NCBI GenBank assembly: GCA_040881665.1
Contig: JBBECT010000004.1
Span: 117,782-181,781, forward strand
Origin: Actinomycetota bacterium
Lineage (GTDB): Bacteria; Actinomycetota; UBA4738; HRBIN12
DNA: 64,000 bases
Reading direction: 5' to 3'
Shown here in pieces: positions 160 to 16,701 of the stretch. Each line of letters begins with the position of its first letter. Within the stretch, counting starts at the first letter, position 1. The notes below the pieces were generated by a model, which ran no database searches, had not been told where the DNA came from, and saw only the letters and a program-made list of their open reading frames with translations. A program made the translations under genes and the position numbers.

Positions 160-1038
160 TTAGCGTGCCTGGATCGACAGCTCCTCCAGCATCCGGCGCT
201 GCCAGTCGACGGTGCGCTCGACCTGGTTGAAGGTGAACAGGTGGAGCGCCCGCACGTCGGCGTTCGCGTCGGCCAAGACCGGAGCGAGATCCTCCAGCAG
301 ACCGTCGGGGCGGTAGCCACCTTTCCGAACGAGGCGGCCGACCGCCCGACGGTTCTTGGACAGGTACCGGGCCGAGCCTCCGACGCCGATCTTCGTCGCG
401 ATCGACAGCAGCTTCGTCAGGTCGGCGACACCGGGCGTCCCCAGGTGCACGGGGAGCGCGATGCCCGAGGCCCGCAACCACTGGACCCACGACGCGATCG
501 CGGTCGGATCCAAACAGAGCTGGGTGGCGATGTAGTCCGCGTGCACCGACTTGTCGCGCAGCGCGGTGCCGAGCACGACCGCATCGATGTCCACGTGCCC
601 CTCGGGATAGCCGGGGATCCCGATCTCGCTCGGTCGCGGACCGGTCTCCTCGATCGCGCGCAGCAGGGCCAGCCCGTCGGGGAACCCGTCGGCGTCGATC
701 GGGTCCCCGCCGACGACGAAGACCGACGTGAGGCCGGCGACCGCGAGTCGCTGCAGCAGCTCGGCCAGATGCGCGCGATCGCGGATCATCCGGGCGGACA
801 GGTGCGGGATCGCGGGGTGGCCGACGGCGGCCATCTTCTCGGCCAGCTCGATCGTGGCCTCGATCCCTTTCGCCGGCGAGGCCGTCACCGTGACCGTGAC
901 GCCCGGGGGAAGGAACGCCGCCTGCTCACCGACGTCGGAGAGCGGGATCAGCTCGAACTTCGGATCCTCGATCAGGCGTCGCAGCGCCACACGTTCGACC
1001 TCGGAGAGCTTCGCGATCCGGGAGCGGCGCAGAGCCAT
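160..1038 (-). CDS. metF: 5,10-methylenetetrahydrofolate reductase (MetF family), 292 aa
   Basis: C-terminal 292 aa of track ORF 160..1944 reads as MTHFR. ATG (CAT on + strand) verified at 1036-1038. The stop abuts the start region of the upstream MttB-family gene, so this is the last gene of the minus-strand chain. Confidence 0.85.
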   Translation of the reverse strand: MALRRSRIAKLSEVERVALRRLIEDPKFELIPLSDVGEQAAFLPPGVTVTVTASPAKGIEATIELAEKMAAVGHPAIPHLSARMIRDRAHLAELLQRLAVAGLTSVFVVGGDPIDADGFPDGLALLRAIEETGPRPSEIGIPGYPEGHVDIDAVVLGTALRDKSVHADYIATQLCLDPTAIASWVQWLRASGIALPVHLGTPGVADLTKLLSIATKIGVGGSARYLSKNRRAVGRLVRKGGYRPDGLLEDLAPVLADANADVRALHLFTFNQVERTVDWQRRMLEELSIQAR

Positions 1039-2579
1039 CAGACGTTCGAGTCCGGGAAGCTCGCCTTCTTCTTCTCGATCCACTCGAGCAGCTCGCCGTC
1101 CTTCGCTTCGTCGATCGGCGGCGGCTCGTACTCGGCAAGCGTCTTCTTCCACAGTGCATTGGCACGCTCGGCGGCGTCCTTGGAGCCCTCGGCCTCCCAC
1201 TGCTCGAAGGAGTTGTTGTCGGCCACCCCCGAGCGGAAGAAAGCCGACTCGAAGTTCGCGAGCGTGTGCGCCGTCCCGAGGAAGTGCTGCCCGGGCCCGT
1301 TCTCGAGGATCGCGTCGATCGCCTGACCGTTCGGCGACAGGTCGACGCCGTTGGCGAACGCCGCCGCCATCCCGCACTGATCGTGGTCGAGCACGAACTT
1401 CTCGTACCCCATCGCGAGCCCGCCCTCGAGCCACCCGGCGGCGTGCAGCACGAAGTTCACCCCGCCGAGCATCGTGGGCTGAAACGTGTTCGCCGACTCG
1501 TAGGCAGCCTGCGCGTCGGGGAGCTTGGAGGCCGTGAGCGACCCTCCGCTGCGGAACGGTACGCCGAGGCGTCGGGCGAGCGCCGCCAGCGAATAGAGCA
1601 CGAGCGCGGGCTCGGGCGTTCCGAACGTCGGCGCGCCCGATTGCATCGACATCGACGACGCGAACGAGCCCATCACGACCGGCGCCCCCGGACGGAGGAG
1701 TTGGACGTAGGTCATCCCGGCCATCGCCTCGGCGAGCGTCTGGGCGACCGCGCCCGCGACGGTCGCGGGACTCATCGCGCCGGCGAGGATGAACGGGGTC
1801 ATGATCAGCGCCTGGTTCGCCTCGGCGTACGCCTTCGCCGCGCCGAGCATCGTCGAGTCCCACACGAGTGGCGAGTTCGCGTTCACCAGGCTCATGACGA
1901 CCGGATGATCCTCGAGGTACGCCGCGCCGAACAGGATCCTGCACATCTCCACGGTGTCCTGCGCGCGAAGGGGGTGGGTCACCGAGCCCATGAACGCCTT
2001 GTCCGAGTAGCGCATGTGCGCGTACACCATGTCGTAGTGGCGCTTGTTGACGGGCAGGTCCACGGGCTCGCAGACCGTCCCGCCCGAGTGGTGCAGGAAC
2101 GGCGCGGCGTACGCGAGCTTCACGAAGTTGCCGAAGTCCTCGATCGTTCCGTACCGGCGTCCCTGGTCAAGATCGTGCACGAACGGCGAGCCGTAGGCCG
2201 GAGCGAGCACGGTGTGCCTCCCGCCGACCTCCACGTTGTGCTCGGGGTTGCGCGCGTACTGCGTGAAGCTCGACGGTGCCGACGCCCGGATCGTCTCCCG
2301 GCACATCCCGGACGGGAAGCGGACACGTTCCCCGTCGACGTCGGCTCCCGCGCCCTTCAGCAGCTCCAGCGCATCGGGCGACTCACGGAACTCGATCCCC
2401 ACCTGTTCCAGGATCGTGTCGGCGTTGTGCTCCATCAGCTCGAGGCCCTCGGTGTCGAGCACCTCGAGCGGCTTGAGCGTTCGCGTGATGTAGGGGATCC
2501 GCTCGGCGGTGGTCGCCGCCCGCGCCGCTTGCCGTGCCGCCCGTCCTCCGCCGCGCCTTCGTCCGGTCGTCTCGCTCAT
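1038..2579 (-). CDS. MttB-superfamily methyltransferase without in-frame amber codon (non-pyrrolysine; glycine betaine/quaternary amine:corrinoid methyltransferase, MtgB-like), 513 aa
   Basis: C-terminal 513 aa of track ORF 1038..4499. ATG verified at 2577-2579. Uninterrupted reading frame with the TIM-barrel MttB fold. The start overlaps the upstream activase stop by 4 nt (ATGA). Confidence 0.8.
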   Translation of the reverse strand: MSETTGRRRGGGRAARQAARAATTAERIPYITRTLKPLEVLDTEGLELMEHNADTILEQVGIEFRESPDALELLKGAGADVDGERVRFPSGMCRETIRASAPSSFTQYARNPEHNVEVGGRHTVLAPAYGSPFVHDLDQGRRYGTIEDFGNFVKLAYAAPFLHHSGGTVCEPVDLPVNKRHYDMVYAHMRYSDKAFMGSVTHPLRAQDTVEMCRILFGAAYLEDHPVVMSLVNANSPLVWDSTMLGAAKAYAEANQALIMTPFILAGAMSPATVAGAVAQTLAEAMAGMTYVQLLRPGAPVVMGSFASSMSMQSGAPTFGTPEPALVLYSLAALARRLGVPFRSGGSLTASKLPDAQAAYESANTFQPTMLGGVNFVLHAAGWLEGGLAMGYEKFVLDHDQCGMAAAFANGVDLSPNGQAIDAILENGPGQHFLGTAHTLANFESAFFRSGVADNNSFEQWEAEGSKDAAERANALWKKTLAEYEPPPIDEAKDGELLEWIEKKKASFPDSNV

Positions 2580-4615
2580 GCGGTCTCGTCCTTTCCAGAG
2601 GTCGCATCGTCGGAGGCGGCGCGGCGCCGGGAGCGCCCACGTCGACCTCGGTCCGTCGTGGCACCCGTTGCGGTCCGCTCGGGCAAGGACACCGCGGTCC
2701 CCAAGCGCGCGTACGGATCGGTCGCGTGCGGGATGCCCATCGCGTTCACGAAATGCTCCTGGAACCTTGGTTCCACCGCCGTCTCGATCTTCTCGATCCG
2801 GCGGACGACGTCTTCGATCTCGGTCCGCGCCGAGCGGTTGAGCAACGCGATCCGCGCTCCCGTCCCGGCGGCGTTCCCCGCGGCGGTGACCCCGGACGGG
2901 TCGCAATCCGGAACCATCCCGAGGACCAGCGCATGCACCGGATCGATGTGCGCTCCGAACGCGCCCGCCAGCCGGATCCGGTCGACGGTTTCGATCTGCA
3001 GATGATCCATCAGCAGGCGGCACCCGGCCTCGAGCGCGGCCTTCGCGAGCTGGATCGCGCGCACGTCGTTCTGGGTGATCACCAACCGCGGCTCGCCGTC
3101 GTGGAGCACGTAGGAGAACGTCCGTCCGTCCGGGACGATCCGCTCCGAACGCCCGGCGAGCGCGCCGTCGATCGTCCCGTCCGCGGTGAGGATCCGCGCG
3201 AGGAACATCTCGGCCATCACCTCGATGATCCCCGACCCGCACACGCCGGTCACCGACGCGCCCTTGAAGCCCGGCTCGTCCGACCAAGCGTTGCGACCGA
3301 TCACGCGGAACCGCGGCTCGAGCGTCTCGGGATCGATCCGGACCCGCTCGACCGCGCCGGGCGCGGCGCGCTGGCCGCAGCTGATCTGCGCTCCTTCGAA
3401 CGCGGGACCGGTCGGGCTCGATGCGGCGAGCAGTCGGTCGCGGTTGCCGAGCACGATCTCGGCGTTCGTCCCGACGTCGACGAGCAGCTCGACCCCCGCC
3501 CGGAGGTACGGACCTTCGGAGAGCACCATGCCCGCCGTGTCCGCGCCCACGTGCCCGGCGATGCACGGCAGGACGTAGACGCGGGCGCCGGGGTGGACCG
3601 CAAGGTCGAGCTCCTCGGCCCGCAGCCGCACCGCCTCGTCGACGGCGAGCGCGAACGGCGCTCCGCCCAGCTCGGTCGGATCGAGGCCGAGCAGCAGATG
3701 GTGCATGATCGGGTTCCCGACGATCGTGAGCTCCAGGATGTCGGTCCCGTCGATCTCCGCGGTGGCCGCGAGCTCGGCGAGGAGCTGGTTGAGGCACTCC
3801 CGGACGACGGCCGTCAGGTCGGCCTCCGAACCGGGGTTCATCATCACGTACGACACCCGGCTCATCAGATCCTCGCCGAAGCGGATCTGCGGGTTCATCG
3901 ATCCCGCCGATGCGAGCACCTCGCCGGTCGTCAGGTCGCACAGGTGCCCCGCAACCGTCGTCGAACCGACGTCGAACGCGACGCCGACCGCACGGTCGTG
4001 GAAACCCGGCCAGATCCCGGTGATCGTCGCCCCGTCGTGGACGGCGACCGTCACGGCCCACTTCCCCTCGCGCAGCGTGCGTTGGAGGTCGCGGAGCACC
4101 TGGAGATCGGCGGTGAGCCCGGTGAGCGCCCACTCCGTCTCGAGCGCCTCCTCGAGCCGCCGCAGATCGCCGGAGGACTCTCCGAGGTCGGGTTCCCGGA
4201 CCTCGACGTAGTACAGGCGCACGACCGGGTCGATCTCGATCGGGTGCGCGTCCGCCTCCTTGCGCACGACCTGGCGATGGACCTGGCTGTCGGCGGGAAC
4301 GTCGACCACGACGTCGCCGAGCACCTCGCAGGCGCACCCGAGCCGGCGGCCGGACGCGAGCCCCTGCTCCCGCGCGTAGGTCTCCTCGGTCCGCGTGAAC
4401 GCGTTCAAGTGATCGGCGGCGGAGGTGATCTGGTGCTTCGCGTGCTCCCCTTCGCTCACCGTGATCTGGCACCGGCCGCAGATCCCCCGTCCGCCGCACA
4501 CCGAGTCGAGGTCGACCCCGAGCGAACGGGCCGCATCGAGGAGGTTCGTCCCCGCCGGGAACCGGCCCCGCTTGCCCGACGGGGTGAAGACGACGAGCGG
4601 CTCGGCCGTGCTCAC
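2576..4615 (-). CDS. RACE/RamA-type ATP-dependent reductive activase of corrinoid proteins (N-terminal plant-type 2Fe-2S ferredoxin + ASKHA ATPase, COG3894/DUF4445-like), about 680 aa
   Basis: A CGGRGICGRCQ 2Fe-2S motif lies near the N-terminus and a long ASKHA-like ATPase body follows. Proposed start is GTG at 4613-4615 (VSTAEPLVVF...), which overlaps the stop of the upstream pterin-binding gene by 4 nt. The alternative start is the upstream ATG at 4717. Confidence 0.75.
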   Translation of the reverse strand: MSTAEPLVVFTPSGKRGRFPAGTNLLDAARSLGVDLDSVCGGRGICGRCQITVSEGEHAKHQITSAADHLNAFTRTEETYAREQGLASGRRLGCACEVLGDVVVDVPADSQVHRQVVRKEADAHPIEIDPVVRLYYVEVREPDLGESSGDLRRLEEALETEWALTGLTADLQVLRDLQRTLREGKWAVTVAVHDGATITGIWPGFHDRAVGVAFDVGSTTVAGHLCDLTTGEVLASAGSMNPQIRFGEDLMSRVSYVMMNPGSEADLTAVVRECLNQLLAELAATAEIDGTDILELTIVGNPIMHHLLLGLDPTELGGAPFALAVDEAVRLRAEELDLAVHPGARVYVLPCIAGHVGADTAGMVLSEGPYLRAGVELLVDVGTNAEIVLGNRDRLLAASSPTGPAFEGAQISCGQRAAPGAVERVRIDPETLEPRFRVIGRNAWSDEPGFKGASVTGVCGSGIIEVMAEMFLARILTADGTIDGALAGRSERIVPDGRTFSYVLHDGEPRLVITQNDVRAIQLAKAALEAGCRLLMDHLQIETVDRIRLAGAFGAHIDPVHALVLGMVPDCDPSGVTAAGNAAGTGARIALLNRSARTEIEDVVRRIEKIETAVEPRFQEHFVNAMGIPHATDPYARLGTAVSLPERTATGATTDRGRRGRSRRRAASDDATSGKDETA

Positions 4616-5535
4616 GGTGGCGCCGGGTCGGTACCCGCTCCCCGGGCGCGCCGGCGAGCGCCGCGCTCCCGACGACCGCCGCCGTCCGCCGAGGGCTCCC
4701 GGTAGGTGCGGATCCACGCGATGCAGTCGGCGTCGTTGCCCATCATCACGTCGGCGGCCATCACGGCCTGGCGGATCTCTGGATGCAGGGGACTCGTGAT
4801 CGCCGAGGTCAGCCCCGAAGCGATCGCCATCGACAGGAACGCCGCGTTCAGACCACCACGGTTCGGCAGGCCGAAGCTGACGTTCGACGCACCGCAGGTG
4901 GAGTTCACGCCGAGCTCGGTCCGCAACCGCCGGACGAGCTCGAACACCTGCCGGCCCGCGGTGCGCATCGCCCCGATCGGCATCACGAGAGGGTCGACGA
5001 CGATGTCCTCGCGGCCGATGCCGTGATCGGCGGCACGCTCGACGATCCGCTTCGCGACGGCGAATCGCTCGTTCGGGTCCTGGGAGATGCCGGTCTCGTC
5101 GTTCGTGATCGCGACGACGGCCGCCCCGTGTCTCGCCACGAGCGGCAGGACGGCCTCGAGACGCTCTTCCTCGCCCGTCACCGAGTTCACGAGCGCCTTG
5201 CCCTGATAGGCGGACAGGCCGGCCTCGAGCGCAGCGACGATCGACGAGTCGATCGAGAGCGGGACGTCGGTCAGGGACTGCACGAGCTTGATCGTCTCCG
5301 CCAGGATCGCCGGCTCGTCCGCGAGCGGGATCCCCGCGTTGACGTCGAGCATCTGCGCGCCCGCCTCGACCTGGGCGTTCGTGTCGACGATCACGGTGGA
5401 GAAGTCGCCGGCCTTCATCTGCTCGGCGAGCGTCTTGCGGCCGGTCGGGTTGATCCGCTCCCCGATCACCACGAACGGACGGTCGAACCCCAGGACGACC
5501 TCCTTCGTCGCCGAGCTGAGGACGGTCTCGGTCAT
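4612..5535 (-). CDS. pterin-binding methyltransferase (methylcorrinoid:tetrahydrofolate methyltransferase, MtgA/MtrH/AcsE-like), 307 aa
   Basis: Pterin-binding (DHPS-like) domain. ATG verified at 5533-5535, with a GGAGG ribosome-binding site 5-9 nt upstream on the minus strand. Start M is residue 129 of track ORF 4612..5919. Confidence 0.8.
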   Translation of the reverse strand: MTETVLSSATKEVVLGFDRPFVVIGERINPTGRKTLAEQMKAGDFSTVIVDTNAQVEAGAQMLDVNAGIPLADEPAILAETIKLVQSLTDVPLSIDSSIVAALEAGLSAYQGKALVNSVTGEEERLEAVLPLVARHGAAVVAITNDETGISQDPNERFAVAKRIVERAADHGIGREDIVVDPLVMPIGAMRTAGRQVFELVRRLRTELGVNSTCGASNVSFGLPNRGGLNAAFLSMAIASGLTSAITSPLHPEIRQAVMAADVMMGNDADCIAWIRTYREPSADGGGRRERGARRRARGAGTDPAPP

Positions 5536-5843
5536 GCGGGGCCTCCGTCGGCGCGCCGGCCGCCGCTGCGGATCAGGGCGCGCAGCGCCTCGTCGGGATG
5601 CGCGGCCTCGATCCGTTCCGCCTCCGCATGCGCCTCGGCCTCGAGGTCGTCTCCGCACGGGCGGGCGTCGCGCGCCCACTCGGCCAGATACTCGTCGGTG
5701 CCGATCAGTCCGATGCTCGTCGCGGCGGCGTCGATCGCCTCCTGGAACCGGTCGGTCAACTGGACCCGCGCCGACTCCCTCCCCTGCTTTGCCGTGACCT
5801 GCGCGGGGATGTCGCGCCAGCGGATCACCGTGAGCTCGGCCAT
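5532..5843 (-). CDS. hypothetical protein, 103 aa, acidic and soluble, translationally coupled between the corrinoid protein and the pterin methyltransferase
   Basis: Normal amino-acid composition, not Arg/Pro-rich. It starts 5 nt after the corrinoid-protein stop and its stop overlaps the start of the downstream gene by 4 nt. No recognisable motif. Confidence 0.55.
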   Translation of the reverse strand: MAELTVIRWRDIPAQVTAKQGRESARVQLTDRFQEAIDAAATSIGLIGTDEYLAEWARDARPCGDDLEAEAHAEAERIEAAHPDEALRALIRSGGRRADGGPA

Positions 5844-5848
5844 CGCGA

Positions 5849-6547
5849 TCAGGCCCCCGCCGCCGCGCGGCGCGCGAGCACGAGCGCCTGCGCCGTCTCG
5901 GCGGCGATCGCGGCGTCACGGCAGTAGGCGTCGGCGCCCACGGTCTTGCCGAACTCCTCGTTCAGCGGCGCGCCACCCACCAGAACGATGTAGTCCTCGC
6001 GGAGGCCCTTGTCGACGAGCTCGTCGATCACGACCTTCATATACGGCATCGTCGTCGTCAGCAGCGCCGACATCCCGAGGATGTCGGGCTCGTGTTCCTC
6101 GAGCGCCTCGAGGTAGTTCTCCACCGGATTGTTGATGCCGAGATCGACGACCTCGAACCCGGCGCCTTCGAGCATCATCGACACGAGGTTCTTCCCGATG
6201 TCGTGGATGTCGCCCTTGACGGTGCCGATCACGACCTTGCCGACCCGTTCCACACCGGTCTCGGCGAGCAGCGGCCGGAGGATCTCCATCCCGGCCTTCA
6301 TCGCGTTCGCGGCCAGCAGCACCTCCGGGACGAACAGGATGCCGTCGCGGAAGTCGATCCCGACGATCCGCATCCCATCGACCAGGGCGTCGTTCAGCAC
6401 CCGGTCGGCCGCCCATCCGCGACCCAGGAGGATGTTCGTTCCCTCGACGATCTCGTCGGCCATGCCGTCGTAGAGATCGTCGTGCATCTGCTTGGTGAGC
6501 TCGTCGTCGGGGAGGGTCGACAGGTCCAGTTCCTGCTCGTCGCTCAT
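5849..6547 (-). CDS. cobalamin (B12)-binding corrinoid protein (MtgC/MtbC/MtmC-like), 232 aa
   Basis: The B12-binding DxHxxG motif is present as DIHDIGKN, with a Rossmann-like B12-binding domain and an N-terminal cap helix domain. Confidence 0.85.
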   Translation of the reverse strand: MSDEQELDLSTLPDDELTKQMHDDLYDGMADEIVEGTNILLGRGWAADRVLNDALVDGMRIVGIDFRDGILFVPEVLLAANAMKAGMEILRPLLAETGVERVGKVVIGTVKGDIHDIGKNLVSMMLEGAGFEVVDLGINNPVENYLEALEEHEPDILGMSALLTTTMPYMKVVIDELVDKGLREDYIVLVGGAPLNEEFGKTVGADAYCRDAAIAAETAQALVLARRAAAGA

Positions 6548-6556
6548 CGGGCGCTC

Positions 6557-9016
6557 CTAGCTCCTCGGGCGTTCGTTCTTGGGGTCGAACAAGGGATCGG
6601 CCGCGACCGTCGCGGCATACCGCTCGTCGAAGTACTCGATCCGGACGGGGGTTCCCTCGACGGCCAGCTCGACCGGCAGGTACCCGTAGGCGATCCCTCG
6701 ACCGATCGAGTAGCCGTGGTTGGCCGAGGTGACGTAGGAGACCACCGCTCCCTGTGCGTCGCGGATCGGCTCCTTGCCGAGCACGACCGCGGACGGATCG
6801 TCGAGGGTCATACACGCGAGCTTGTGGCTCGAGCCACCTCGGGCGATCCGCTCGAGCGCGTCGCGGCCCTGGAACCCGCCCTTGTCCATCCGCACCGCGA
6901 ACCCGAGGCCGGCCTCGAACGGATCGTGCTCGGTGTGGATGTCCTGACCCCAGAGGCGGTAGCCCTTCTCCAGGCGCAGGGAGTCGAACGCCCCGAGGCC
7001 CGCCGCCACGATCCCGTGCTCACGCCCCGCGTCGAAGAGCAGCTCCCAGGCCCGCGCGCCCATCTCGAACGGGCCGTACACCTCCCATCCGAGCTCACCG
7101 ACGTAGGAGATCCGCTGGGCGAACACGGGCACCTCGCCCAGGTGGATCGGCCGTCCGGTGAGGTACCCGAACGCCTCGTTCGACACGTCGTCGGTCGTCA
7201 CCGCCGACAGCACGTCGCGTGCACGCGGCCCCCAGAGTCCGAAGCAGAACGAGCTCGTCGTGCGATCGACGATCCCGACCCGCTCACCGTCGCGGGCCTG
7301 CGCGCGCAGCCACGCGAGGTCGTGCATCGCCGATCCGCCACCGGTCACGACCTGGAACAGGTCCTCGGCCAGCCGCGTCACGGTCAGGTCGCACCGGATG
7401 CCACCCCGGGGCGTGAGCATCGCCGTGTAGATCACCGACCCGACGGCCCGGTCGATCCGGTTCGCGCAGATCCGCTCCAGGAATGCGAGCGCGCCGGCAC
7501 CACCGACCGCGAACTTTGCGAACGGCGTGATGTCGAACAGCGCGACACGTTCGCGGGTCGCCAGGTGTTCGGCGCCCTCGATCGGCGACCAGTGCTGCGC
7601 TGCCCATCCCGATCGCCGCTCCCACGGGTCGCCACGGAGCAGGTCCCCGTTGGACGCGAACCATTGGGGGCGCTCCCACCCCGCTCCCACCACGAACTCC
7701 GCGTCGAGCGCGGCGTGCGCCTCGTAGGCGGGGGTCAGGCGGAGCCTGCGTGGGCGCTCCATCTGCTGGCGGGGATGGATGATGTCGTAGACCTCGCGGT
7801 AGTTCTGCGCACCGCGTTCGCGGACGTACGGCGGGGTCGTCATGTACGGGTAGAACCGGTTCGCGTCGGCCTCGGCGAGGTCCATGCTCGGCTCGCCGGT
7901 CGCGATCCACTCGGCGACCTGACGGCCCATGCCGCCTCCCTGCGTGACCCAGACCGCTTCGCAGATCCAGAATCCGCGCACGTCGGTCGACTCGCCGACG
8001 ATCGAGCCCATGTCGGGCGTGAACGAGAACATCCCGTTGATCGCGGTGGACAGGTCGATCCGATCCGTCAGGGCCGGCATGATCCGGGTCGATTCGCGTT
8101 CGCACTCGGAGAAGTGCTCCGGCGTGAACGGCATCACCGACGGCATAGGACCGGGCTCGGACGGGTGGCGGATGTCTTCCGGGTCGGTGAGCACGGGTTC
8201 GTGGCGATAGTTGCCCAGCGCGTAGCGGTCCTCGCGCTGGCGGTAGTACAGCGAGACGTCCTGGTGACGCAGGATCGGGTGAGCAATCTCGTCTGTCTGA
8301 CCCGCGAGCTCGGGGAGCGGCTCGGTCCACACGAGCTGGTGTTGCACGGCCGCGAGCGGGATCGGCACCCCCGCCATCGCCCCGAGCCGCGGCCCCCAGA
8401 TCCCCGCGCACACGAGCACCTGCTCGCACTCGACGTCGCCCCGGTCGGTCCGCACACCGTGGACGTGTCCCTCTCGGATGTCGAACCCGGTGACCGTCAC
8501 GCCACCCTCGAACGCGGCGCCCCTGGCCTCCGCCTTCCGCGCGTACGCGGCGGCGAGACGAACGGCCTTCGCAGCTCCGTCGGAGGGGACGAAGAGCGAG
8601 CCGTGGATCGTCGACGGGTCGAGCAGAGGGATCTTCGCGGCGGTCTCGCCGGGGTCCAACAGCTCGGCACCCTCGATCCCGTAGGCGCGGGCGAACCCGA
8701 GACGGCGCTTCAGCTCCTCCATGCGCTCGTGTGTAGTCGCGATCTCGATCCCGCCGACGCCGTACCAGCCCGGCTGCCCGTCGAGAGCGAGCTCGGCGTA
8801 CTGGGCGACCGTGTCCTGCGCGATCCGGCACATCGTCCGGGATCCGTTCGTCTGGAACACCAGTCCCGGGGCGTGTGAGGTCGACCCGCCGGTCTCGAAA
8901 AGCGGTCCCTGATCGAGAACGAGGACATCCGTCACGCCGAGTTCGGCCAGGTGGCGGGCGGCGCTCGTGCCCACGATCCCCGCTCCCACGATCACCAGTT
9001 GGGCCCGATCGCGCAT
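6557..9016 (-). CDS. dimethylglycine oxidase/dehydrogenase (FAD-dependent oxidase domain fused to a GcvT-like folate-binding aminomethyltransferase domain), 820 aa
   Basis: N-terminal dinucleotide-binding motif VIVGAGIVGTSAARHLAELG and a C-terminal GcvT-like domain. ATG verified at 9014-9016. Start M is residue 39 of track ORF 6557..9130. Confidence 0.8.
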   Translation of the reverse strand: MRDRAQLVIVGAGIVGTSAARHLAELGVTDVLVLDQGPLFETGGSTSHAPGLVFQTNGSRTMCRIAQDTVAQYAELALDGQPGWYGVGGIEIATTHERMEELKRRLGFARAYGIEGAELLDPGETAAKIPLLDPSTIHGSLFVPSDGAAKAVRLAAAYARKAEARGAAFEGGVTVTGFDIREGHVHGVRTDRGDVECEQVLVCAGIWGPRLGAMAGVPIPLAAVQHQLVWTEPLPELAGQTDEIAHPILRHQDVSLYYRQREDRYALGNYRHEPVLTDPEDIRHPSEPGPMPSVMPFTPEHFSECERESTRIMPALTDRIDLSTAINGMFSFTPDMGSIVGESTDVRGFWICEAVWVTQGGGMGRQVAEWIATGEPSMDLAEADANRFYPYMTTPPYVRERGAQNYREVYDIIHPRQQMERPRRLRLTPAYEAHAALDAEFVVGAGWERPQWFASNGDLLRGDPWERRSGWAAQHWSPIEGAEHLATRERVALFDITPFAKFAVGGAGALAFLERICANRIDRAVGSVIYTAMLTPRGGIRCDLTVTRLAEDLFQVVTGGGSAMHDLAWLRAQARDGERVGIVDRTTSSFCFGLWGPRARDVLSAVTTDDVSNEAFGYLTGRPIHLGEVPVFAQRISYVGELGWEVYGPFEMGARAWELLFDAGREHGIVAAGLGAFDSLRLEKGYRLWGQDIHTEHDPFEAGLGFAVRMDKGGFQGRDALERIARGGSSHKLACMTLDDPSAVVLGKEPIRDAQGAVVSYVTSANHGYSIGRGIAYGYLPVELAVEGTPVRIEYFDERYAATVAADPLFDPKNERPRS

Positions 9017-9050
9017 CCGGTTCCCCGCGCTCCTTAAGCTTCTCGCCCGT

Positions 9051-9070
9051 GCGACGGCGTACGCCGTCGC
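9051..9070. promoter_or_regulatory. 20-bp perfect palindrome GCGACGGCGTACGCCGTCGC in the ALDH-DMG oxidase intercistronic gap
   Basis: Seen in the sequence. On the minus-strand transcript it would form an 8-9 bp GC stem, but no U-tract follows, so it is more likely an operator or an RNA processing/stability hairpin than an intrinsic terminator. Confidence 0.35.
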
Positions 9071-9131
9071 CGGCACCGATGGTCGGCCCGCGTGGTTGCG
9101 CTGACAACCCACCGGTTGCGACCTCAGCAAC

Positions 9132-10586
9132 TCAGCTCTCGCCGAGGTTGAGCACCACGGTCTTGAGCTCGGTCAGGCGCTCCATCGAGTAGCGCCCTCC
9201 GACACGGCCGATACCGCTCTTGGAGCCCGCGCCGCCGCCGAAGGGAAGGTGGGACTCCCAGTAGTTGGTGCCCTCGTTCACGTTCACCCACCCGGTGCGC
9301 ACCCGCTCGGCAAACCGTAGCCCCCGCGCCAGGTCGGCGGTGAAGATCGCCGACAGCAGCCCGTACTCCGAGTCGTCGACGAGCGCCACCGCCTCGTCCT
9401 CGCTGCGGATCGTCGAGACCGGAACAACCGGACCGAACGTCTCCTCGCGCGCCACCTGCATCCGGTCGGTCACGCCGTCGAGGACCGTCGCCTCGAAGAA
9501 CAGCTCGCTGCCGTGCTCGGGCGCACGACGGCCGCCGGTGACGACGGAGGCACCTGCCTCGACCGCTTCGGCCACGTGCCGCTCGGTCTTGTCGGCGACA
9601 CCGGCGTTGTTCACCGGACCCATCGTGGTCGCGTCGTCCAAGGGATCGCCGAGGTGGATCTTCTCCGCGACGGCGGCGGAAAGCTTGCCGACGTACACGT
9701 CGTGGACGGTTTCGTGGACGAGGATCCGTTCACCCGCCGTGCAGCTCTGTCCGGCGTTCAGGAAGCACGCCGTCAGCGTCGCCTCGACCGCCGCGTCGAT
9801 GTCGCCGTCCTCCATCACGACGAGCGGTCCGTTGCCACCCATCTCCAGCAGCAGATCCTTGCCGGCCGCGCGCTCCGCGACGCGATGACCGGTCGCGATC
9901 GAGCCGATGAACCCGATCGCGCTCGTCCCGGGATTCGCGGCGACCTCGTCGCCGACGACCGCGCCCTCGCCGGTCACCATGTTGAAGACGCCCGCCGGCA
10001 GGTCGGCCTCGACGATGCACTCGGCGAAGCGAACGGCGCACACCGACGTCGAGGGCGCGGGCACCCAGACGATCGCGTTCCCGTAGGCGAGCGCCGGGGC
10101 CAGGATCTCCCCCGGCATGGTGTACGGCCAGTTCCACGGACTGATGATCCCGACGACGCCGCGCGGCACGCGGTAGAGCAGCACGCGCTTGTTCGCATCG
10201 AACGACGGCGGCATGATCCCGTCCATTCGGATCGCGTCGGCCGCGGCCATCTCGAAGTAGCCGAGTAGTTCCTCGACCTCGTCGTTGGCCTCGGCGGCCA
10301 GGGGCTTGCCCTGATCGATCGCGAGCGTGCGCGCGAGCTCGATGCGGTTGGCGTCGATCGCCGCGGCGATCCGTCGCATCCCTGCCGCCCGGTCGAAGGC
10401 CGACATCCCGGCCCACCCACGACGCGCACGCTGGGCAGCGCCGATCGCGCGCTGCACGTCCCCGCGCGTGCCGCTGGGCACGGTTGCGACCACCTCGCCC
10501 GAGCGCGGGCTCGTCGCTTCGAGCGTCGCGCCGTCGGACGCGTCGGCCCACGTTCCGTCGATGTACAGCTTCAGGTTCTCGCTCAT
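9132..10586 (-). CDS. NAD(P)-dependent aldehyde dehydrogenase, candidate betaine-aldehyde dehydrogenase by context, 484 aa
   Basis: ALDH superfamily with catalytic Cys in QSCTAG and an ELGGNGP motif. ATG verified at 10584-10586, with GGGGAG upstream. Confidence 0.85.
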   Translation of the reverse strand: MSENLKLYIDGTWADASDGATLEATSPRSGEVVATVPSGTRGDVQRAIGAAQRARRGWAGMSAFDRAAGMRRIAAAIDANRIELARTLAIDQGKPLAAEANDEVEELLGYFEMAAADAIRMDGIMPPSFDANKRVLLYRVPRGVVGIISPWNWPYTMPGEILAPALAYGNAIVWVPAPSTSVCAVRFAECIVEADLPAGVFNMVTGEGAVVGDEVAANPGTSAIGFIGSIATGHRVAERAAGKDLLLEMGGNGPLVVMEDGDIDAAVEATLTACFLNAGQSCTAGERILVHETVHDVYVGKLSAAVAEKIHLGDPLDDATTMGPVNNAGVADKTERHVAEAVEAGASVVTGGRRAPEHGSELFFEATVLDGVTDRMQVAREETFGPVVPVSTIRSEDEAVALVDDSEYGLLSAIFTADLARGLRFAERVRTGWVNVNEGTNYWESHLPFGGGAGSKSGIGRVGGRYSMERLTELKTVVLNLGES

Positions 10587-10679
10587 CGCTCCCCGTCCCC
10601 GCAACGGCGACGGGGGCGGCCCATGGACCGCCCCCGTCTCACCGCCGTGCTTCCCGTGTTCGGACCGTCCTGTTCGTGC

Positions 10680-11690
10680 TCAGGCCGCCGGCATCCAGGA
10701 GTCGACGACGTCCTGGTTGGCGTCGATCCAGGTCTGCGCGGCCTCCTCGGGATCCGCTCCCTCCTGCAGCTCGAGGGCGACCGAGTTCTGGTCCTCTTCG
10801 GTCCACTGGAAGTTGGAGAGGAACTCGAACGCCGCCGGGTCCTTCTCCGCGAAGTCCACGCTGAACGCCTTGTAGAGCACGTCGTCGGCGTAGTCGCAGT
10901 CATAGCCCGCCGCCTCGTCCGGATCGTCGAGCGCGATCTGCTCGCACTCCTCATCGAACTCCGGCAACTCGACCTCGACGAGGTCGTACTTCGCATTGGC
11001 CCACTGCGGGGTCCACCAGTACATGACGATCGGCTCTTCGTTCTTCACGGCGTTGTCGAGCGCCGACAGCGACGCGGTCTCCGATCCGGAGTACACGACC
11101 TCGAGGTCCAGTCCCAGACTCTCGATGATCGCCTCGTCGAAGATCGAGTACGTCGTGTCCGCACCGAGGAAGCGGCCCTTGTCGCCCGTCTCCGCCGTTG
11201 AGAACGCGTCGGCCTCGGTGAAGCCCTCGTACGTGGCGTACTCGGGGGTATCCTCGACGACGTAGGACGGCACGAACCATCCGATGTTGCCGGTGATGCC
11301 GAGCTCGCCTCCGTCGACGACGGTGCCGGCCTTCTCGATGTACTGCGACCGGTCCTTCGCATGGCCGGAGGGCCAGACCTCGAGCGTCGCGTCGACATCA
11401 CCCGAGGCCATCGCGGGGAACTGCGCGGATTCGTTGATCTCCTGGAGCTCGACCTCGCAACCCATCTCCTCCTGCATCACCTGTTGGACGACGACCGCGT
11501 TCGCCTCGGCCCCGATCCACGGGTTCACGGCGATCACGATCGGGTCGTCGGTGGAGCACTGCGCGACGCTCGCCGTGTCGCCGTCGCCTCCGGTGTCCTC
11601 GGGTGTGTCCTCGACGTCGCTACACGCGGCGCCCACGAGCGCGAGTCCCGCCACGCAGGCGACGAGCGTCAGCCACTTCGAACCCTTCAT
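10680..11690 (-). CDS. glycine betaine/proline betaine ABC transporter substrate-binding lipoprotein (OpuAC/ProX family)
   Basis: Signal peptide with a lipobox (LVGAAC S) followed by an OpuAC-like body. ATG verified at 11688-11690, with a GGAGGGAGG ribosome-binding site. Confidence 0.8.
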   Translation of the reverse strand: MKGSKWLTLVACVAGLALVGAACSDVEDTPEDTGGDGDTASVAQCSTDDPIVIAVNPWIGAEANAVVVQQVMQEEMGCEVELQEINESAQFPAMASGDVDATLEVWPSGHAKDRSQYIEKAGTVVDGGELGITGNIGWFVPSYVVEDTPEYATYEGFTEADAFSTAETGDKGRFLGADTTYSIFDEAIIESLGLDLEVVYSGSETASLSALDNAVKNEEPIVMYWWTPQWANAKYDLVEVELPEFDEECEQIALDDPDEAAGYDCDYADDVLYKAFSVDFAEKDPAAFEFLSNFQWTEEDQNSVALELQEGADPEEAAQTWIDANQDVVDSWMPAA

Positions 11691-11787
11691 GCGTCCTCCC
11701 TCCGTCGGCACGGCCGCTGCCGCTGCCGCTGCCTCACCCCGGCCGTCGCCACCGCTCCGGCCGCTGCTTCCTGGTACGCCATTCGAG

Positions 11788-13878
11788 TCATCTCGAGCTC
11801 TGATCGCCCGATCCGCCCGATCCGCCCGATCCGTTCGCTCCGTTCGCTCCGCCCACGATCGCGCGCAGCTTGGTCCACGGCGCGAACCCCATCTCCCCGA
11901 CCGGCCCGCGCAGGGTGCGCGGCGCCGATCCCATCGCCTGCGTGATGCGATCGAGCACGATCGCCAGCAGCAGGATGCACGTACCGGCGACCACCCCGCG
12001 GCCGATCTGCTGCTTGCCGAGCGCGAACACCACCTCTTGTCCCAGCCCGGCCGCGCCGATCAGCCCGGCGATGATCACGACGGACAGGACCATCATGATC
12101 GTCTGGTTGATCCCGAGCAGGATCGTCGGTCGCGCGAGCGGCAGTTCGACCTTCGCGAGCATCTGCTTCGAGGTCGCACCGTACGAGCGACCGGCCTCGG
12201 TGATCTCGGCCGGAACCTGGCGGATCCCGAGGTTGGTCAGCCGCACGCCCACGGGCAGCGCGTAGATCAGCGACGCGATGATCGCCGGGACGCGTCCGGG
12301 CTCGAAGAGGAGCAGCACCGGCACCAGGTAGACGAATGCGGGCATCGTCTGCATCGCGTCGAGCACGGGCCGTGACCACCGCTCGAACCGGTCGCTGCGC
12401 GCGGCGAGGATGCCGAGCGGGATCGCGAACGCCGCGGTGATCGCGACCGCGACGAGCACCTGGGTAAGGGTCCCCATCGACAGATCCCACATCCCGAGGA
12501 ACCCGAGCGCGGCGATGCACGCGAAGCACCCGATCGCGAGCTTGATCCCGGACACCCGCCACGCGAGCAGGGCGAACGCACCCGCGACCATCCACCACGG
12601 GACGCCGACGAACAGCGCCTCCAGCGGATCGAGGACGTAGATGATGAGGAAGTCGTTGATCGCGCCCGTGACCCCGGCAAGGTTGGTCTGGGACCACTCG
12701 ACGATCGCGTTCGCCGGCGTGGCGACCGAGGTCTCGAGCGCCTCGGGGAACACCTGCTGGCGGAGCACCTCCCGGCCGATCAGCACCGCCGCGACGGTCA
12801 CCACGACCGCTGCCACCACTTGCATCCGCCGGGTCACCACGAGTCCGCCGATCCGCAGGGGGGGCGTCGTGCGGCGATCCCGGTCGCTCCAGGCGGTCGT
12901 CACGCGATCGAGCACGATCGCCATCACGACGATCGCGATCCCGCCGTTGAGCGCCTCCCCGACGTTGAAGTCCTGGAGACCCTCGATCACCGCCTGACCG
13001 AGTCCCCCGGCGCCGATGAACGCGGCGATCACGACGAGGCCGAGCGCCATCATGATCGTCTGGTTCACCCCGAGCATGATCGAGGGCTTGGCCATCGGGA
13101 TCTGCACCGACCGCAGCTTCTGCCGTTCGGTCGCACCGAAGGAATCGGCCACCTCGAGCGAGGTCTCCGGAACGTTGCGGATCCCGAGCGCGGTCAGCCG
13201 GATCGCGGGCGGCAGGGCGAACGCGAGCGTGGCGAGCAACGCCGGCGGGGCCCCGACCCCGAACAGCAGCACGAACGGCAACAGGTAGGAGTAGGCGGGA
13301 ATCGTCTGCATCGCGTCGAGGATCGGCCGGAGGGCCCGCTCGACGCGGGGACGCCGCCCCGCCCAGATCCCCAACGGGATCCCGACCAGTACGGCGAGTG
13401 AGACCGACACGATGATCAGGGCGAGCGTCTCGAGGCTCGCCTCCCACACGCCGAGCAGCCCGAAGCTCGCGACGCCGAGGCCGGCGAGCAGCGCCATCTT
13501 CCAGCCCGCGAGCACCCCCGCGAGCGCTCCCGCCCCGACCACGAGGCCGAGCCAGGTCATCCGCTCCAACGCGGCCACCGTGCTGTCGATCGCCGCCTCG
13601 ACCGCGTCCGAGATCGGCGTCAGGAACAGCGTGAACAACGGGCTGGTGCGGGAGTTCTCCACCGTCCAGTCGCGGAACGCATCCAGTGGAGCGGTGACGT
13701 CGATCACCAACGACTCGGGGAACCCCGCGCGCAGCCATACGAGCCCGATCACCGCGACCACGACGGCGACCACCGCCCAAGCGATGCGACGCGGCCAGGG
13801 GCTCGCCGCTCGATGGAACACCGCCGGCGCGACCTCGCCCACCACGGGGGACGGCGTCCGCGGCGGAGCGATCGCCAT
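11788..13878 (-). CDS. glycine betaine ABC transporter permease, tandem-fused double ProW/OpuAB domain, 696 aa
   Basis: Two consecutive ABC-2 type permease domains each carrying the EAA-like loop. The C-terminal low-complexity tail [17 protein letters not shown] is encoded by tandem 9-nt repeats. Confidence 0.85.
11802..11855 (-). repeat. in-frame degenerate 9-nt tandem repeats (about 6 units: gatcgcccg atccgcccg atccgcccg atccgttcg ctccgttcg ctccgccca) encoding the [15 protein letters not shown] tail of the fused ProW permease
   Basis: Seen in the sequence at the 3' end of CDS 11788-13878. Confidence 0.5.
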
Positions 13879-13881
13879 CCG

Positions 13882-14895
13882 CTAGCGCTCCTCGACCATC
13901 GCGCCGAGCACCCGCGACCGATCCACGATGCCGAGCACCCGCTCGTCCTCGACCACGCGCAGCGTGAGGTCTTCGTCGACGACGAGCGGCAGCAGCTCCT
14001 GCACGACGGTCGTGGGTGCGACATCCGGTCCGTAGCGGCGTCCGTCCGTTGACGGCGGCGCCACCATGATCGAACGGGCCGTGAGCACGTGGGCGCGCGG
14101 AACGTCGCGGACGAAGTCGGCAACGTAGTCGTCGGCGGGAGCGGACACGACCTCCTCGGGGGTTCCGACCTGGACGAACCCGCCGTCTTTCATGATCGCG
14201 ATCCGGTCGCCGAGCTTCAGCGCCTCCATCAGGTCGTGGGTGATGAAGACCATCGTCTTGCGGAGCTCGCGCTGCAGGCGGATCACCTCCTCCTGCATGT
14301 CGCGGCGGATCAGCGGATCCAGGGCACTGAACGGCTCGTCGAACAGCATGATCTCCGGATCGGTCGCGAGCGCTCGGGCGAGCCCGACGCGCTGCTGCAT
14401 CCCACCGGAGAGCTCGTCGGGGTAGGACTCGCCCCAGCCTCCGAGTCCGACCACCTCGAGAACCTCGTTCGCGCGCGCGGTGCGGGCGTCTTTGTCCACC
14501 CCTTGCACCTCGAGGCCGAACGCGGCGTTGTCGACGATCCGCCGGTGCGGGAACAGACCGAAGTGCTGGAACACCATGCTGACCCTCGTCCGGCGGAGCT
14601 CCCGCAGACGATCTGCGCTCAGCTGCAGGATGTCGTCGCCGTCGATCGCCACGCTGCCGGCGGTCGGCTCGATCAGCCGTGAGATGCATCGCACGAGCGT
14701 GGACTTCCCGGAGCCCGACAGCCCCATCACGACGAAGACCTCGCCGGTCCCGACGTCGAACGAGACGTCCCGGACGGCGGCGACACAGCCGGTCTTCTCC
14801 AGCAGTTCGGCGCGGGCGAGGTTCGCGTCCGGCGAGCCGATGATCCGTTCGGCCTTCGGACCGTAGACCTTCCACACGTCACGACACGACAGCAT
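13882..14895 (-). CDS. glycine betaine/proline ABC transporter ATP-binding protein (ProV/OpuAA) with C-terminal CBS domains
   Basis: Walker A motif GLSGSGKST and signature LSGGMQQRV. The N-terminus VWKVYG aligns with ProV LYKIFG when the start is ATG at 14893-14895. The track's alternative start is GTG at 14961. Confidence 0.85.
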
Positions 14896-15036
14896 CAGGT
14901 CGGCAGGGGGATCGGTCCGTTCGTTCCCGCTAGACACCCTGGTCGAAGATACTGGGAGCACCTCCTCCCGTGCGCAAGGCAGGGGTTGCGGTCATCGCAA
15001 CCATCCGCGCACTCGTCAACCGGACGCCGCGGCCAG

Positions 15037-16701
15037 TCACGAGGCCTGCTGATGCCGGTAGAACCCGACCTCCTCCGGGGGAAGGGGTGTGTTGCCGAGC
15101 AGCAGGTCGGCGGCCTTCTCCGCGACCATCATCACGGGGGCGTAGATGTTGCCGTTCGTGACGTAGGGCATCACCGAGGCGTCGACCACCGACAGACCCT
15201 CGGTGCCCCGAACCCGCATCGTCAGCGGATCGACGACGGCGAGCTCGTCGGTTCCCATCTTCGCCGTGCACGAAGGGTGCAACGCCGTCTCGCCCTCCCG
15301 CGCCACCCACTCGAGGATCTGCTCGTCGGTCTCGACCGCCGGCCCCGGCGACAGCTCGCCGCCGTCGAACGGAGCGAACGCCGGGCGGCCCAGGATGTCG
15401 CGCGCGACGTCGATCGCCTCGACCCACTCGCGGCGATCCTGGTCGGTCGACAGGTAGTTGAACCGGAGCGCCGGATGCGTCCACGGATCACGGCTGGTGA
15501 TCTTCACCGTCCCCCGCGCATCGGAGTACATCGGGCCGATGTGCACCTGGTAGCCGTGGTCCCCGGCGGGAGCCGACCCGTCGTAGCGAACCGCGACCGG
15601 GAGGAAGTGGAACATCAGGTTTGGGTAGGCCACCTCGTCGTTGCTCCGTACGAACCCTCCGGCCTCGAAGTGGTTCGTCGCGCCGAGACCCGAGCGGAAC
15701 ACGAGCCACTGGAACCCGATCCACGGGCGGTTGCGCCACTTCAGACCCGGTGCGACCGACACCGGCTGGGTACAGGCGTGCTGGATGTAGACCTCGAGGT
15801 GGTCCTGAAGGTTCTCCCCGACGCCCGGCAGGTCCGCGACCATGTCGACCCCGAGCGCGCCGAGCTCGTCCGCTGCGCCGATCCCCGACAACTGCAGCAG
15901 CTGTGGCGAGTTGATCGCCCCTCCGCACAGCACGACCTCCCCGGCGCGAACCCGCTTCGGCGAGGTCCCCAACCCGTGGACGTATTCGACGCCGACGGCA
16001 CGCGACCCCTCGAACAGGATCCGTGTGACGAACGCACGGGTGCTGACCTCGAGGTTGGGACGATGCCGGACCGGGTGGAGGTAGGCGCGTGCGGCCGAGA
16101 GACGACGGCCATGGTGCACGTTCCGGTCGAAGGGCGCGAACCCCTCCTGGCGGTAGCCGTTGACGTCCTCGGTCAGGGGATACCCCGCCTGCTGCACGGC
16201 CTCGAAGAACGCCCCGAACAGGGGGCTCGTCGCCGGACCGCGCTCGAGCGCGAGCGGGCCCGCGTGGCCGCGGAACGGATCCTCGAGCTCGGCCGCGAGG
16301 CAGGACTCCATCCGCTTGAAGTACGGCAGGCAGTGCGCGTAGTCCCATGTCTCCATCCCCGGATCCGCGGCCCACCGCTGATAGTCCAACGGGTTCCCGC
16401 GCTGGAAGATCATGCCGTTGATGCTGCTCGAGCCGCCGAGAACCTTCCCCCGCGCGTGGTAGATCCGGCGCCCGTTCATGCGTGGCTCGGGCTCGGACTC
16501 GTACTTCCAGTCGTAGAACCGGCTCCCGATCGGGAACGTGAGCGCCGCGGGCATATGGATGAAGACGTCCCAGAGATAGTCGGGCCGGCCCGCTTCGAGC
16601 ACCAACACCCGGTTCGAGGCGTCGGCGCTCAGTCGGTTCCCGAGCGCGCTCCCCGCCGAGCCGCCGCCCACGATCACGAAGTCGTACTGCGTCGCAGTCA
16701 C
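15037..16701 (-). CDS. betA: choline dehydrogenase (GMC oxidoreductase)
   Basis: FAD motif [18 protein letters not shown] and extensive collinear similarity to E. coli BetA along the whole length. GTG start at 16701 with a GGAAGGGG ribosome-binding site 5 nt upstream. Confidence 0.9.

Follow-up and report, generated by a model that had tools for sequence, protein, structure and literature searches.

A probable actinobacterial copy of the aerobic corrinoid-dependent glycine betaine demethylase, encoded within a choline/betaine catabolic gene chain of an uncultured soil bacterium

Corrinoid-dependent demethylation of glycine betaine has been demonstrated genetically in an aerobic bacterium, Ruegeria pomeroyi, in which knockouts revealed that growth on glycine betaine requires MtgC and MtgD (Mausz et al., PNAS 2025, PMC12478193). 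Two MttB-family proteins (SPO2108 and SPO2134), a RamA-like activase, a DUF1638 protein and MetF2 are induced in R. pomeroyi on this substrate, and MtgC and MtgD double as a split methionine synthase (PMC12478193). According to the same study, mtg genes of other bacteria are "frequently colocated ... and even found in operons" with genes for cobalamin reactivation, one-carbon (C1) oxidation and the demethylations that follow; in other Proteobacteria they lie together with RamA, MetF2 and dimethylglycine (DMG)/sarcosine genes, S. meliloti carries a co-localized mtgBCDE cluster, and Actinomycetota account for 5% of ocean mtgC reads. Here we analyzed a stretch of 64,000 nucleotides from an actinobacterial contig (JBBECT010000004.1; the whole stretch is referred to as the window), in which a chain of twelve genes at positions 160–16701 of the minus strand encodes a candidate system of this kind together with proteins for the import and oxidation of choline. 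An initial annotation of this DNA had regarded the demethylation module as known from strict anaerobes only, which is out of date in view of the work on R. pomeroyi, and had regarded its linkage to later demethylation and C1 genes as departing from the textbook, when such operons had already been reported in other bacteria (PMC12478193). The concept is already published (2025), and the window extends it without introducing a new principle. Literature searches for an actinobacterial MttB/MtgB system returned nothing specific.

Two further systems are related. MtgABC of D. hafniense carries out anaerobic methyl transfer from glycine betaine to tetrahydrofolate (THF), a three-component chemistry that the window proteins are predicted to share. 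In the cmu pathway of Methylobacterium sp. CM4 and in Sphingobium SYK-6, which has a "type 4" methylenetetrahydrofolate reductase (MTHFR), an aerobe transfers methyl groups onto THF, and the resulting methyl-THF is oxidized by an MTHFR paralogue dedicated to this step, although the methyl donors and methyltransferases of both differ from those of the window; the aerobic corrinoid-dependent chloromethane pathway of Methylobacterium appears, dated 1999, among the references of PMC11868366. We consider it likely that the glycine betaine demethylase of the aerobic MtgBCD type is present in the window as an actinobacterial copy, placed within a choline/betaine catabolic chain, and that it serves the catabolic demethylation of glycine betaine.

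In S. meliloti, the locus as annotated comprises an ASKHA activase, a "methyltetrahydrofolate cobalamin methyltransferase", an MTHFR with an MTHFR C-terminal-domain protein, a "virulence factor", a DUF1638 protein, a cobalamin-binding protein, an MttB-family protein, a ferredoxin and bmt. Separate orthologues of MtgB, MtgC and MtgD are encoded in the window, with 64% (MttB), 81% (MtgC) and 62% (MtgD) identity to the S. meliloti proteins, accompanied by a RACo-type activase (58%) and by a PF13769 protein (55%) whose gene is common to both clusters. This orthology indicates that the window carries an orthologue of the described aerobic system. The components shared with the MtgBCD(E) systems of R. 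pomeroyi, Phaeobacter inhibens and S. meliloti (PMC12478193; PMC5764234) are the MttB protein, the free corrinoid protein, the pterin protein, the RamA/RACo activase and an MTHFR paralogue. The window differs from them in that its host belongs to the phylum Actinomycetota, in that no DUF1638, Bmt/MtgE or ferredoxin gene lies nearby, and in that the genes form a single co-directional chain with betA, a transporter, an aldehyde dehydrogenase and a DMG oxidase. Its MTHFR is also of a different clade than the MTHFR and MTHFR_C pair of S. meliloti.

The gene at 2579–1038 (−; 513 aa) encodes a non-pyrrolysine methyltransferase of the MttB superfamily that is presumed to be an MtgB-like glycine betaine:corrinoid methyltransferase. 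Its product matches PF06253 (COG5598) with 744.5 bits over profile positions 1–500 of 500, which bears out the initial assignment to this superfamily. The open reading frame (ORF) contains no in-frame stop. A pyrrolysine-dependent trimethylamine methyltransferase was ruled out by the uninterrupted ORF, by a TIGR02369 score of 258 against a cut-off of 525 and by only 110 bits to the pyrrolysine-containing MttB 7xcl. Among solved structures, the best relatives are 4yyc (711 bits), which is the MttB-family protein of the S. meliloti cluster, and D. hafniense MtgB (399 bits). The window protein is therefore far closer to the proteobacterial aerobic clade than to D. hafniense MtgB, and the context differs too, being rich in oxidases rather than built around the Wood–Ljungdahl pathway. 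The closest cultured MttB homologue, that of Azoarcus KH32C, adjoins folD, a choline-binding protein gene, betA and betB.

Of the three partner proteins, the corrinoid and pterin proteins are encoded by intact, free-standing genes with complete motifs. The corrinoid (B12) carrier is of the MtgC type (6547–5849, −; 232 aa; B12-binding_2 and B12-binding domains) and combines the B12 cap domain PF02607 with PF02310; with D113-x-H-x-x-G (DIHDIG at 113), the SxL motif as SAL at 160 and GG at 191, it has the features of a cobalamin-binding protein. It is also the most conserved component, with 75–93% identity across phyla among the homologues in the related loci L002–L086, compared with 66–83% for the MttB protein and 58–79% for the activase. 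The methylcorrinoid:tetrahydrofolate methyltransferase is of the MtgD/MtgA type (5535–4612, −; 307 aa; Pterin_bind) and passes the methyl-THF:corrinoid methyltransferase model NF005719 (352 vs. 259). The ATP-dependent reductive activase (4615–2576, −; 679 aa) resembles RACo and RamA in joining an N-terminal Fe–S domain to an ASKHA core (Fer2 plus RACo_linker, Raco_middle and RACo_C_ter), and carries a Cys40-x5-Cys46-x2-Cys49 [2Fe–2S] motif with Cys94/96. Fragments of MetH were ruled out as an identity for the corrinoid and pterin proteins by the metH model TIGR02082 (about 150 bits vs. a cut-off of 1011), so that the initial view of them as neither MetH fragments nor pseudogenes is retained.

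A different use of the same proteins has to be considered, namely that the corrinoid, pterin and RACo genes mainly form a split cobalamin-dependent methionine synthase and the MttB protein feeds betaine methyl groups into methionine, making the module anabolic or dual-purpose. The mtgC and mtgD mutants of R. pomeroyi are methionine auxotrophs and MtgD was proposed to be bidirectional (PMC12478193), the split synthase of Phaeobacter has the same domain set and a RamA-like activase (PMC5764234), and the strong constraint on MtgC is consistent with several protein partners. However, no homologue of the homocysteine-binding module Bmt/MtgE was found in the approximately 85 kb formed by the window and locus L001, on contig JBBDTR010000005.1 (assembly GCA_040904315.1), which encodes an MttB protein identical to that of the window. 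A nearby bmt occurs in only one Actinomycetota/Chloroflexota locus, and the module lies among catabolic genes, the next gene after it being the MTHFR-like one, whose closest relative oxidizes methyl-THF. We judge this explanation quite unlikely, and it is in any case compatible with catabolic demethylation of glycine betaine rather than exclusive of it.

Flanking the core, the chain encodes enzymes that would form and consume the expected intermediates. The predicted DMG oxidase (9016–6557, −; 819 aa), with an FAD domain and a folate-binding GcvT-like domain (DAO, FAO_M, GCV_T and GCV_T_C), aligns over residues 5–818, i.e., at full length, with the Arthrobacter globiformis dimethylglycine oxidase 1PJ5 (752 bits); the four domains are laid out alike in the two proteins, both have a His at residue 48, and no difference between them was detected at the sequence level. 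His48 of the window protein lies within STSHAPG; in the Arthrobacter enzyme, FAD is covalently attached at His48. BetA, an FAD-dependent choline dehydrogenase of the GMC family that would turn choline into betaine aldehyde (16701–15037, −; 554 aa; GMC_oxred_N/C), passes the betA equivalog TIGR01810 (822 vs. a cut-off of 732), and its best solved relative is the "oxygen-dependent choline dehydrogenase" 9lq0 (614 bits; choline oxidase, 257 bits).

Between these two genes are those of a betaine/proline/choline-type ABC importer, consisting of a ProV-type ATPase, a ProW/ChoW-type permease and a binding protein of the OpuAC fold, and of an NAD(P)-dependent aldehyde dehydrogenase (10586–9132, −; 484 aa; Aldedh, 472 bits). 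The ATPase (14895 or 14961–13882, −; 337 or 359 aa; ABC_tran) passes the proV subfamily model TIGR01186 (369 vs. 327) and probably starts at the ATG at 14895 (337 aa), its homologues in L084 and L086 being 340–345 aa long. The permease (13878–11788, −; 696 aa) is a fusion of two ProW/ChoW-like modules with two BPD_transp_1 stretches and scores above both ChoW TIGR03416 (472 vs. 363) and ProW NF008196 (460 vs. 439); in L084 and L086 the corresponding place is taken by fused permeases of 687–700 aa. The OpuAC-type substrate-binding lipoprotein (11690–10680, −; 336 aa; PF04069, 157 bits; lipobox LVGAAC) matches the ChoX and ProX models at 53–55 bits and is too divergent for assignment to choline or betaine.

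Downstream of the last gene, beyond the left edge of the window, an ATPase_2/DUF234 gene is followed on the opposite strand by soxG-soxA-soxD-soxB (L001 12712–21542), and these soxBDAG genes for a heterotetrameric sarcosine oxidase are followed by an IclR-type regulator and a PALP enzyme. Their presence on the same contig means that the third demethylation is also encoded nearby, which would complete a route to glycine and agrees with the early proposal that all three methyl groups are covered.

Taken from homology and gene context in this uncultured bacterium, the proposed route runs as follows. The ProV/ProW/OpuAC transporter would import choline and/or glycine betaine, and BetA, probably with the adjacent aldehyde dehydrogenase, would convert choline to glycine betaine. 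The MttB-family protein would then take one methyl group off glycine betaine and place it on the corrinoid protein in its Co(I) state, leaving dimethylglycine, and the pterin methyltransferase would pass this methyl group to THF. Corrinoid that has slipped to Co(II), which is likely to be frequent in an oxygen-exposed cell, would be re-reduced by the RACo activase using ATP and its [2Fe–2S] cluster. The MTHFR-like enzyme may oxidize methyl-THF to methylene-THF, the DMG oxidase may remove the second methyl group as methylene-THF to give sarcosine, and soxBDAG, outside the window, may take off the third. Among the evidence for this reading are the betaine-forming BetA and the dimethylglycine-consuming DMG oxidase that flank the module. 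All gene assignments have Pfam domain support, and the five-step logic of the initial annotation holds by homology; its further suggestion of independence from BHMT and GbcAB was overstated, being checkable over about 85 kb only.

Several observations weigh against this reading, the first of which concerns the substrate. In D. hafniense MtgB, contacts of Y97, R312, H348 and F356 with glycine betaine were established by mutagenesis and a bound structure (Picking et al. 2026, PMC13080624). The first three are conserved in the alignment as Y129, R343 and H379 of the window protein, but the second aromatic contact, F356, aligns with Gly387. The segment reads HAAGWLEGG in the window and HTAGILQYF in MtgB, with W383 four residues past the conserved His, and one might guess that Trp383 substitutes for F356. 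About 63 of 82 aligned relative rows, proteobacterial ones included, have the same contact pattern, a count that is approximate since some other rows were mis-extracted ORFs in wrong frames and nine were gapped at key columns. The specificity for glycine betaine is thus presumed mainly from context: BetA is encoded upstream, the DMG oxidase gene ends 9 nt before the corrinoid gene, a single MttB paralogue is present in 85 kb and the clade has links to betaine. Alternatively, the corrinoid system could be real and the MttB protein could act on another methylated amine (choline, proline betaine, carnitine, gamma-butyrobetaine or other), with a looser link to betA and the DMG oxidase. The MttB superfamily is known to include members that differ in substrate, marine bacteria have as many as seven paralogues whose substrates are presumed to differ (PMC12478193), and the unassigned ligand of the binding protein and the Gly at the F356 position would also fit. 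Against this, dimethylglycine is a product only if the substrate is glycine betaine, the same clade is tied to the glycine betaine cluster of S. meliloti and, in Azoarcus, to betA/betB, and D. hafniense MtgB scores 399 bits; another amine as the substrate therefore seems unlikely to us. Betaine as substrate, as first annotated, stands mainly on context, with three of the four MtgB contacts for it and the fourth against.

Other points on the same side concern the partner proteins. The best NCBIfam match of the corrinoid protein, MtgC_2, reaches 205 bits against a cut-off of 370, and the activase is below the cut-offs of AcsV (398 vs. 800, the best) and RamA (114 vs. 500). DUF1638, which was reported to be needed alongside the RamA-like protein in Phaeobacter (PMC5764234), is absent from the window and L001, so that within this span only the RACo activase of the reactivation pair of the aerobic MtgBCD system is present. 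In most relatives a DUF1638 gene lies between the corrinoid and PF13769 genes (89 bits to Pfam in L003; tblastn), and it was found in L003, L012, L048, L084–L086 and most Chloroflexota and proteobacterial loci; the junction regions that hold it are 5980–6651 in L003, 9541–10011 in L084 and 9355–10011 in L086, compared with 5843–5849 in the window. It is also absent from six close actinomycete loci (L008, L009, L010, L013, L014 and L016), in which the corrinoid and PF13769 genes abut. Across the window and L001, the MttB, corrinoid, pterin and RACo genes each occur only once, and no ferredoxin gene was detected near the window cassette. No cobalamin synthesis or uptake gene and no B12 riboswitch were identified within the window, and Rfam models run over the entire window at gathering thresholds returned no cobalamin, glycine or THF riboswitch.

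The aldehyde dehydrogenase reaches no equivalog cut-off for betaine-aldehyde dehydrogenase (TIGR01804, 371 vs. 669; NF009725, 342 vs. 593), and its nearest solved relatives are succinate-semialdehyde dehydrogenases (327 bits; betaine-aldehyde dehydrogenase, 295 bits). An aldehyde dehydrogenase gene is found at this position in L014 and L084 as well, and an HpcH aldolase gene in L086. The role in choline oxidation that the initial annotation gave to this enzyme is not borne out by these scores, and its function as betaine-aldehyde dehydrogenase is presumed from position and context.

The MTHFR-like protein (1038–160, −; 292 aa) is a presumed methyl-THF to methylene-THF oxidoreductase that scores weakly on canonical models (PF02219, 39 bits; TIGR00676, 47 vs. 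294). Its best solved relative is 7xg9 (130 bits, whereas canonical MTHFRs reach 36 bits). This structure is S6MTHFR, the type 4 enzyme of Sphingobium SYK-6, which prefers methyl-THF oxidation and partners THF-dependent demethylases (Yu et al. 2025, PMC11868366). In the window protein, the catalytic Glu, Asp and Gln are retained. Because this closest solved relative oxidizes methyl-THF and partners demethylases, a catabolic direction is plausible for the window protein. At the positions of the type 4 signature (L48-P49, R78, F215, C219 and P268-F-G-G-L), however, the window protein has S-P, M, I, I and T-F-N-Q-V, keeping only P49 and F269, which again counts against the proposed scheme. Membership in the methyl-THF-oxidizing type 4 group was accordingly rejected residue by residue, most signature residues being changed. 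The weak canonical scores and the few type 4 residues together indicate a divergent MTHFR-fold enzyme rather than the canonical MetF of the first label. MTHFR type follows phylogeny: MetF of the window type was found only in Actinomycetota, Chloroflexota and Thermoleophilia, and the MTHFR and MTHFR_C pair of the S. meliloti type almost only in proteobacterial loci (e.g., L082 5443–7118).

Two further cautions apply to the chain as a whole. The host is an uncultured soil actinobacterium known from a metagenome-assembled genome (MAG), the source record of the identical PF13769 protein being annotated as a MAG of an Actinomycetota bacterium. Since this is so, its aerobic lifestyle is an inference from enzymes encoded near the cassette that use oxygen (DMG oxidase, sarcosine oxidase, Rieske oxygenase, amine oxidase and luciferase-like monooxygenase), and the term "aerobic-type actinobacterium" holds to that extent. 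The single transcript, too, is a proposal, because four junctions of 93–141 nt could hold promoters.

The minus strand carries all coding signal over positions 1–20000 according to the phase of GC at third codon positions (GC3), and gene starts picked by ribosome-binding site and GC3 signal agree with the NCBI gene calls on the source contig, confirming twelve co-directional genes. The GC content is 66–72% throughout the window, and that of the twelve-gene region (0.68–0.72) is the same as the rest. From betA to the MTHFR gene, the junctions measure 141, 3, 97, 93, 115, 9, 5, −4 (ATGA), −4 (GTGA), −4 (ATGA) and −1 (TGATG) nt, the first being 75 nt if the ATPase starts at the alternative GTG. 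All are under 150 nt, as initially stated, with four of the 11 overlapping, three more at 9 nt or less and four at 93–141 nt. Tight coupling is limited to the last seven genes, so that the description of most junctions as translationally coupled is accurate for this part and overstated for the chain. The seven downstream genes, from the DMG oxidase to the MTHFR gene, probably form one translationally coupled unit, and the five upstream genes may have their own promoters. A sigma-70 scan found no promoters, and a terminator scan found three terminator-like sites (4.0 expected), all inside coding sequence and none in the gaps; both scans are uninformative for a high-GC actinobacterium. Upstream of betA, the segment 16824–19907 (−) contains an EamA-family transporter gene and one for an ADP-forming acyl-CoA synthetase-like protein, with gaps of 122 and 39 nt. 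These genes are co-directional with the chain, extending the same-strand run to at least 14 genes.

The twelve genes could instead represent several independent transcription units (betA; the transporter; the aldehyde dehydrogenase; and the DMG oxidase to the MTHFR gene), in which case the word "supraoperon" would overstate their wiring. The four longer junctions are in line with this, the two additional co-directional genes make co-orientation alone weak evidence, and the upstream part differs among relatives: one gene of L084 is reversed, L085 has CRISPR-Cas instead, and L086 has a divergent GMC gene and an HpcH aldolase in place of the aldehyde dehydrogenase. On the other hand, the gaps are without an intrinsic terminator, functional coherence is high, and the order of transporter, aldehyde dehydrogenase, DMG oxidase and cassette recurs in L014 and L084. 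We regard independent units as an appreciable possibility, somewhat short of even, which bears on regulation only and leaves the pathway unchanged.

The arrangement itself is more than chance, because a six-gene core is collinear in most related loci of three phyla and actinomycete MAGs show the extended layout again. When one genome per species was scanned, more than 591 relatives of the MttB protein were obtained, and the taxonomy of the top 80 comprised Actinomycetota MAGs (mostly about 78–83% identity), Thermoleophilia/Gaiellales, Chloroflexota (about 71–78%) and Proteobacteria (66–71%), the last with examples from Steroidobacteraceae, Comamonadaceae, Halomonas, Halioglobus and SAR324. Where the flanks of a locus were long enough to judge, those of Actinomycetota contain the corrinoid gene in nine of nine cases, the pterin and RACo genes in eight of nine each, PF13769 in seven of nine, MetF of the window type in 10 of 13 and a DMG oxidase upstream in five of nine. 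All 19 Chloroflexota loci encode the corrinoid, pterin and RACo proteins, with PF13769 in 16 of 19, window-type MetF in 20 of 23 and an upstream DMG oxidase in none of 19. In Thermoleophilia/Gaiellales the corresponding counts are 3/3 (corrinoid), 2/3 (pterin), 3/3 (RACo), 3/3 (PF13769), 4/4 (MetF) and 0/3 (DMG oxidase), and in Proteobacteria and others 6/16, 8/16, 11/16, 6/16, 0/16 and 0/16. The cassette thus recurs in soil Actinomycetota, Chloroflexota and Proteobacteria, and the transporter-to-MetF layout in actinomycete MAGs.

The neighborhoods L084–L086 are Pfam-annotated loci of close PF13769 homologues. L084 has the order ATPase, fused permease, OpuAC, aldehyde dehydrogenase, DMG oxidase, corrinoid, DUF1638, PF13769, pterin, RACo, MttB and MTHFR, with sox genes opposite, and L086 is near-identical except for the GMC gene and the aldolase mentioned above. 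The extended layout in these two indicates that the supraoperon is recurrent in a group of soil actinomycete MAGs with a variable upstream half. L085 (1–8370) contains the core cassette only, which abuts a type I CRISPR-Cas locus. At 12136–14844 of L084, the activase and MttB genes were called as one 902-aa product, either a fusion or an assembly/frameshift artifact.

The initial annotation counted twelve genes correctly but gave functions for eleven, leaving unnamed the PF13769 ("Virulence_fact") protein (5843–5532, −; 103 aa), which is a conserved member of the cassette. It has 2021 homologues at E ≤ 1e-5, and in an alignment of 39 sequences 27 positions never vary, among them a single cysteine and a stretch reading WR-IPAQV. 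The AlphaFold model is of high confidence (pLDDT 92, pTM 0.79) and has a four-stranded sheet against helices. The position of the gene is constant, between the corrinoid/DUF1638 genes and the MTHFR/pterin genes. No mention of the accession PF13769 was found in the literature searched, and "virulence factor" is absent from the main text of Mausz et al. (PMC12478193). A tentative and, in our judgment, rather doubtful proposal is that the cassette is a Gram-positive/Chloroflexota variant of the aerobic demethylase with an obligate accessory set (PF13769 and the new MTHFR-fold clade), that DUF1638 is dispensable in the sub-lineage of the window and that PF13769 is an unrecognized functional subunit. 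If this is true, the protein might, for instance, couple or protect the corrinoid/pterin pair, and the label "virulence factor" that it bears in thousands of genomes would be misleading.

The remainder of the window contains further genes for amine use. A gene at 30120–31307 (+) encodes a protein with Rieske and ring-hydroxylating alpha-subunit domains. GbcA was rejected as its identity (NF058607, 184 vs. a cut-off of 670), and its closest solved relatives are the carnitine monooxygenase CntA (6y8j, 179 bits) and then Stc2 (3vca, 114 bits). By these comparisons it is placed within the broad group of oxygenases acting on quaternary or N-methyl amines, as a CntA-like protein and not a GbcA orthologue, and the idea that a GbcA/Stc2-like oxygenase provides a second, coexisting chemistry of betaine demethylation is not supported. 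At 28440–33503, an MFS transporter gene (+), the Rieske oxygenase gene (+) and a gene for a second aldehyde dehydrogenase (−; 571 bits to Aldedh) are found, possibly a separate unit for quaternary-amine or carnitine-like oxidation. At 22809–28705, a flavin amine oxidase gene adjoins those of a polyamine-type ABC transporter, namely an SBP_bac_8 binding protein, a permease and a TOBE-domain ATPase, which suggests a broader amine-catabolism island. The twelve-gene chain itself contains no regulator. A TetR regulator with a BetI-type C-terminal domain, which scores 49 bits on BetI and so stays under the cut-off, is encoded at 63273–63944 (−), at a distance of 47 kb from the operon. Two ORFs with strong coding signal, at 59601–61070 (+; 489 aa) and 22239–22757 (−; 172 aa), gave no match in Pfam.

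If glycine betaine is the substrate, as we consider likely, B12-dependent glycine betaine demethylation, which was shown in aerobic marine Proteobacteria, would extend to soil Actinomycetota and Chloroflexota. The window would represent its most self-contained form among the loci compared here, with import, choline oxidation and the first two demethylations in one chain and a sarcosine oxidase nearby. Such a gene set would be compact enough for heterologous reconstitution, and its occurrence would imply a cobalamin demand for osmolyte turnover in soils.

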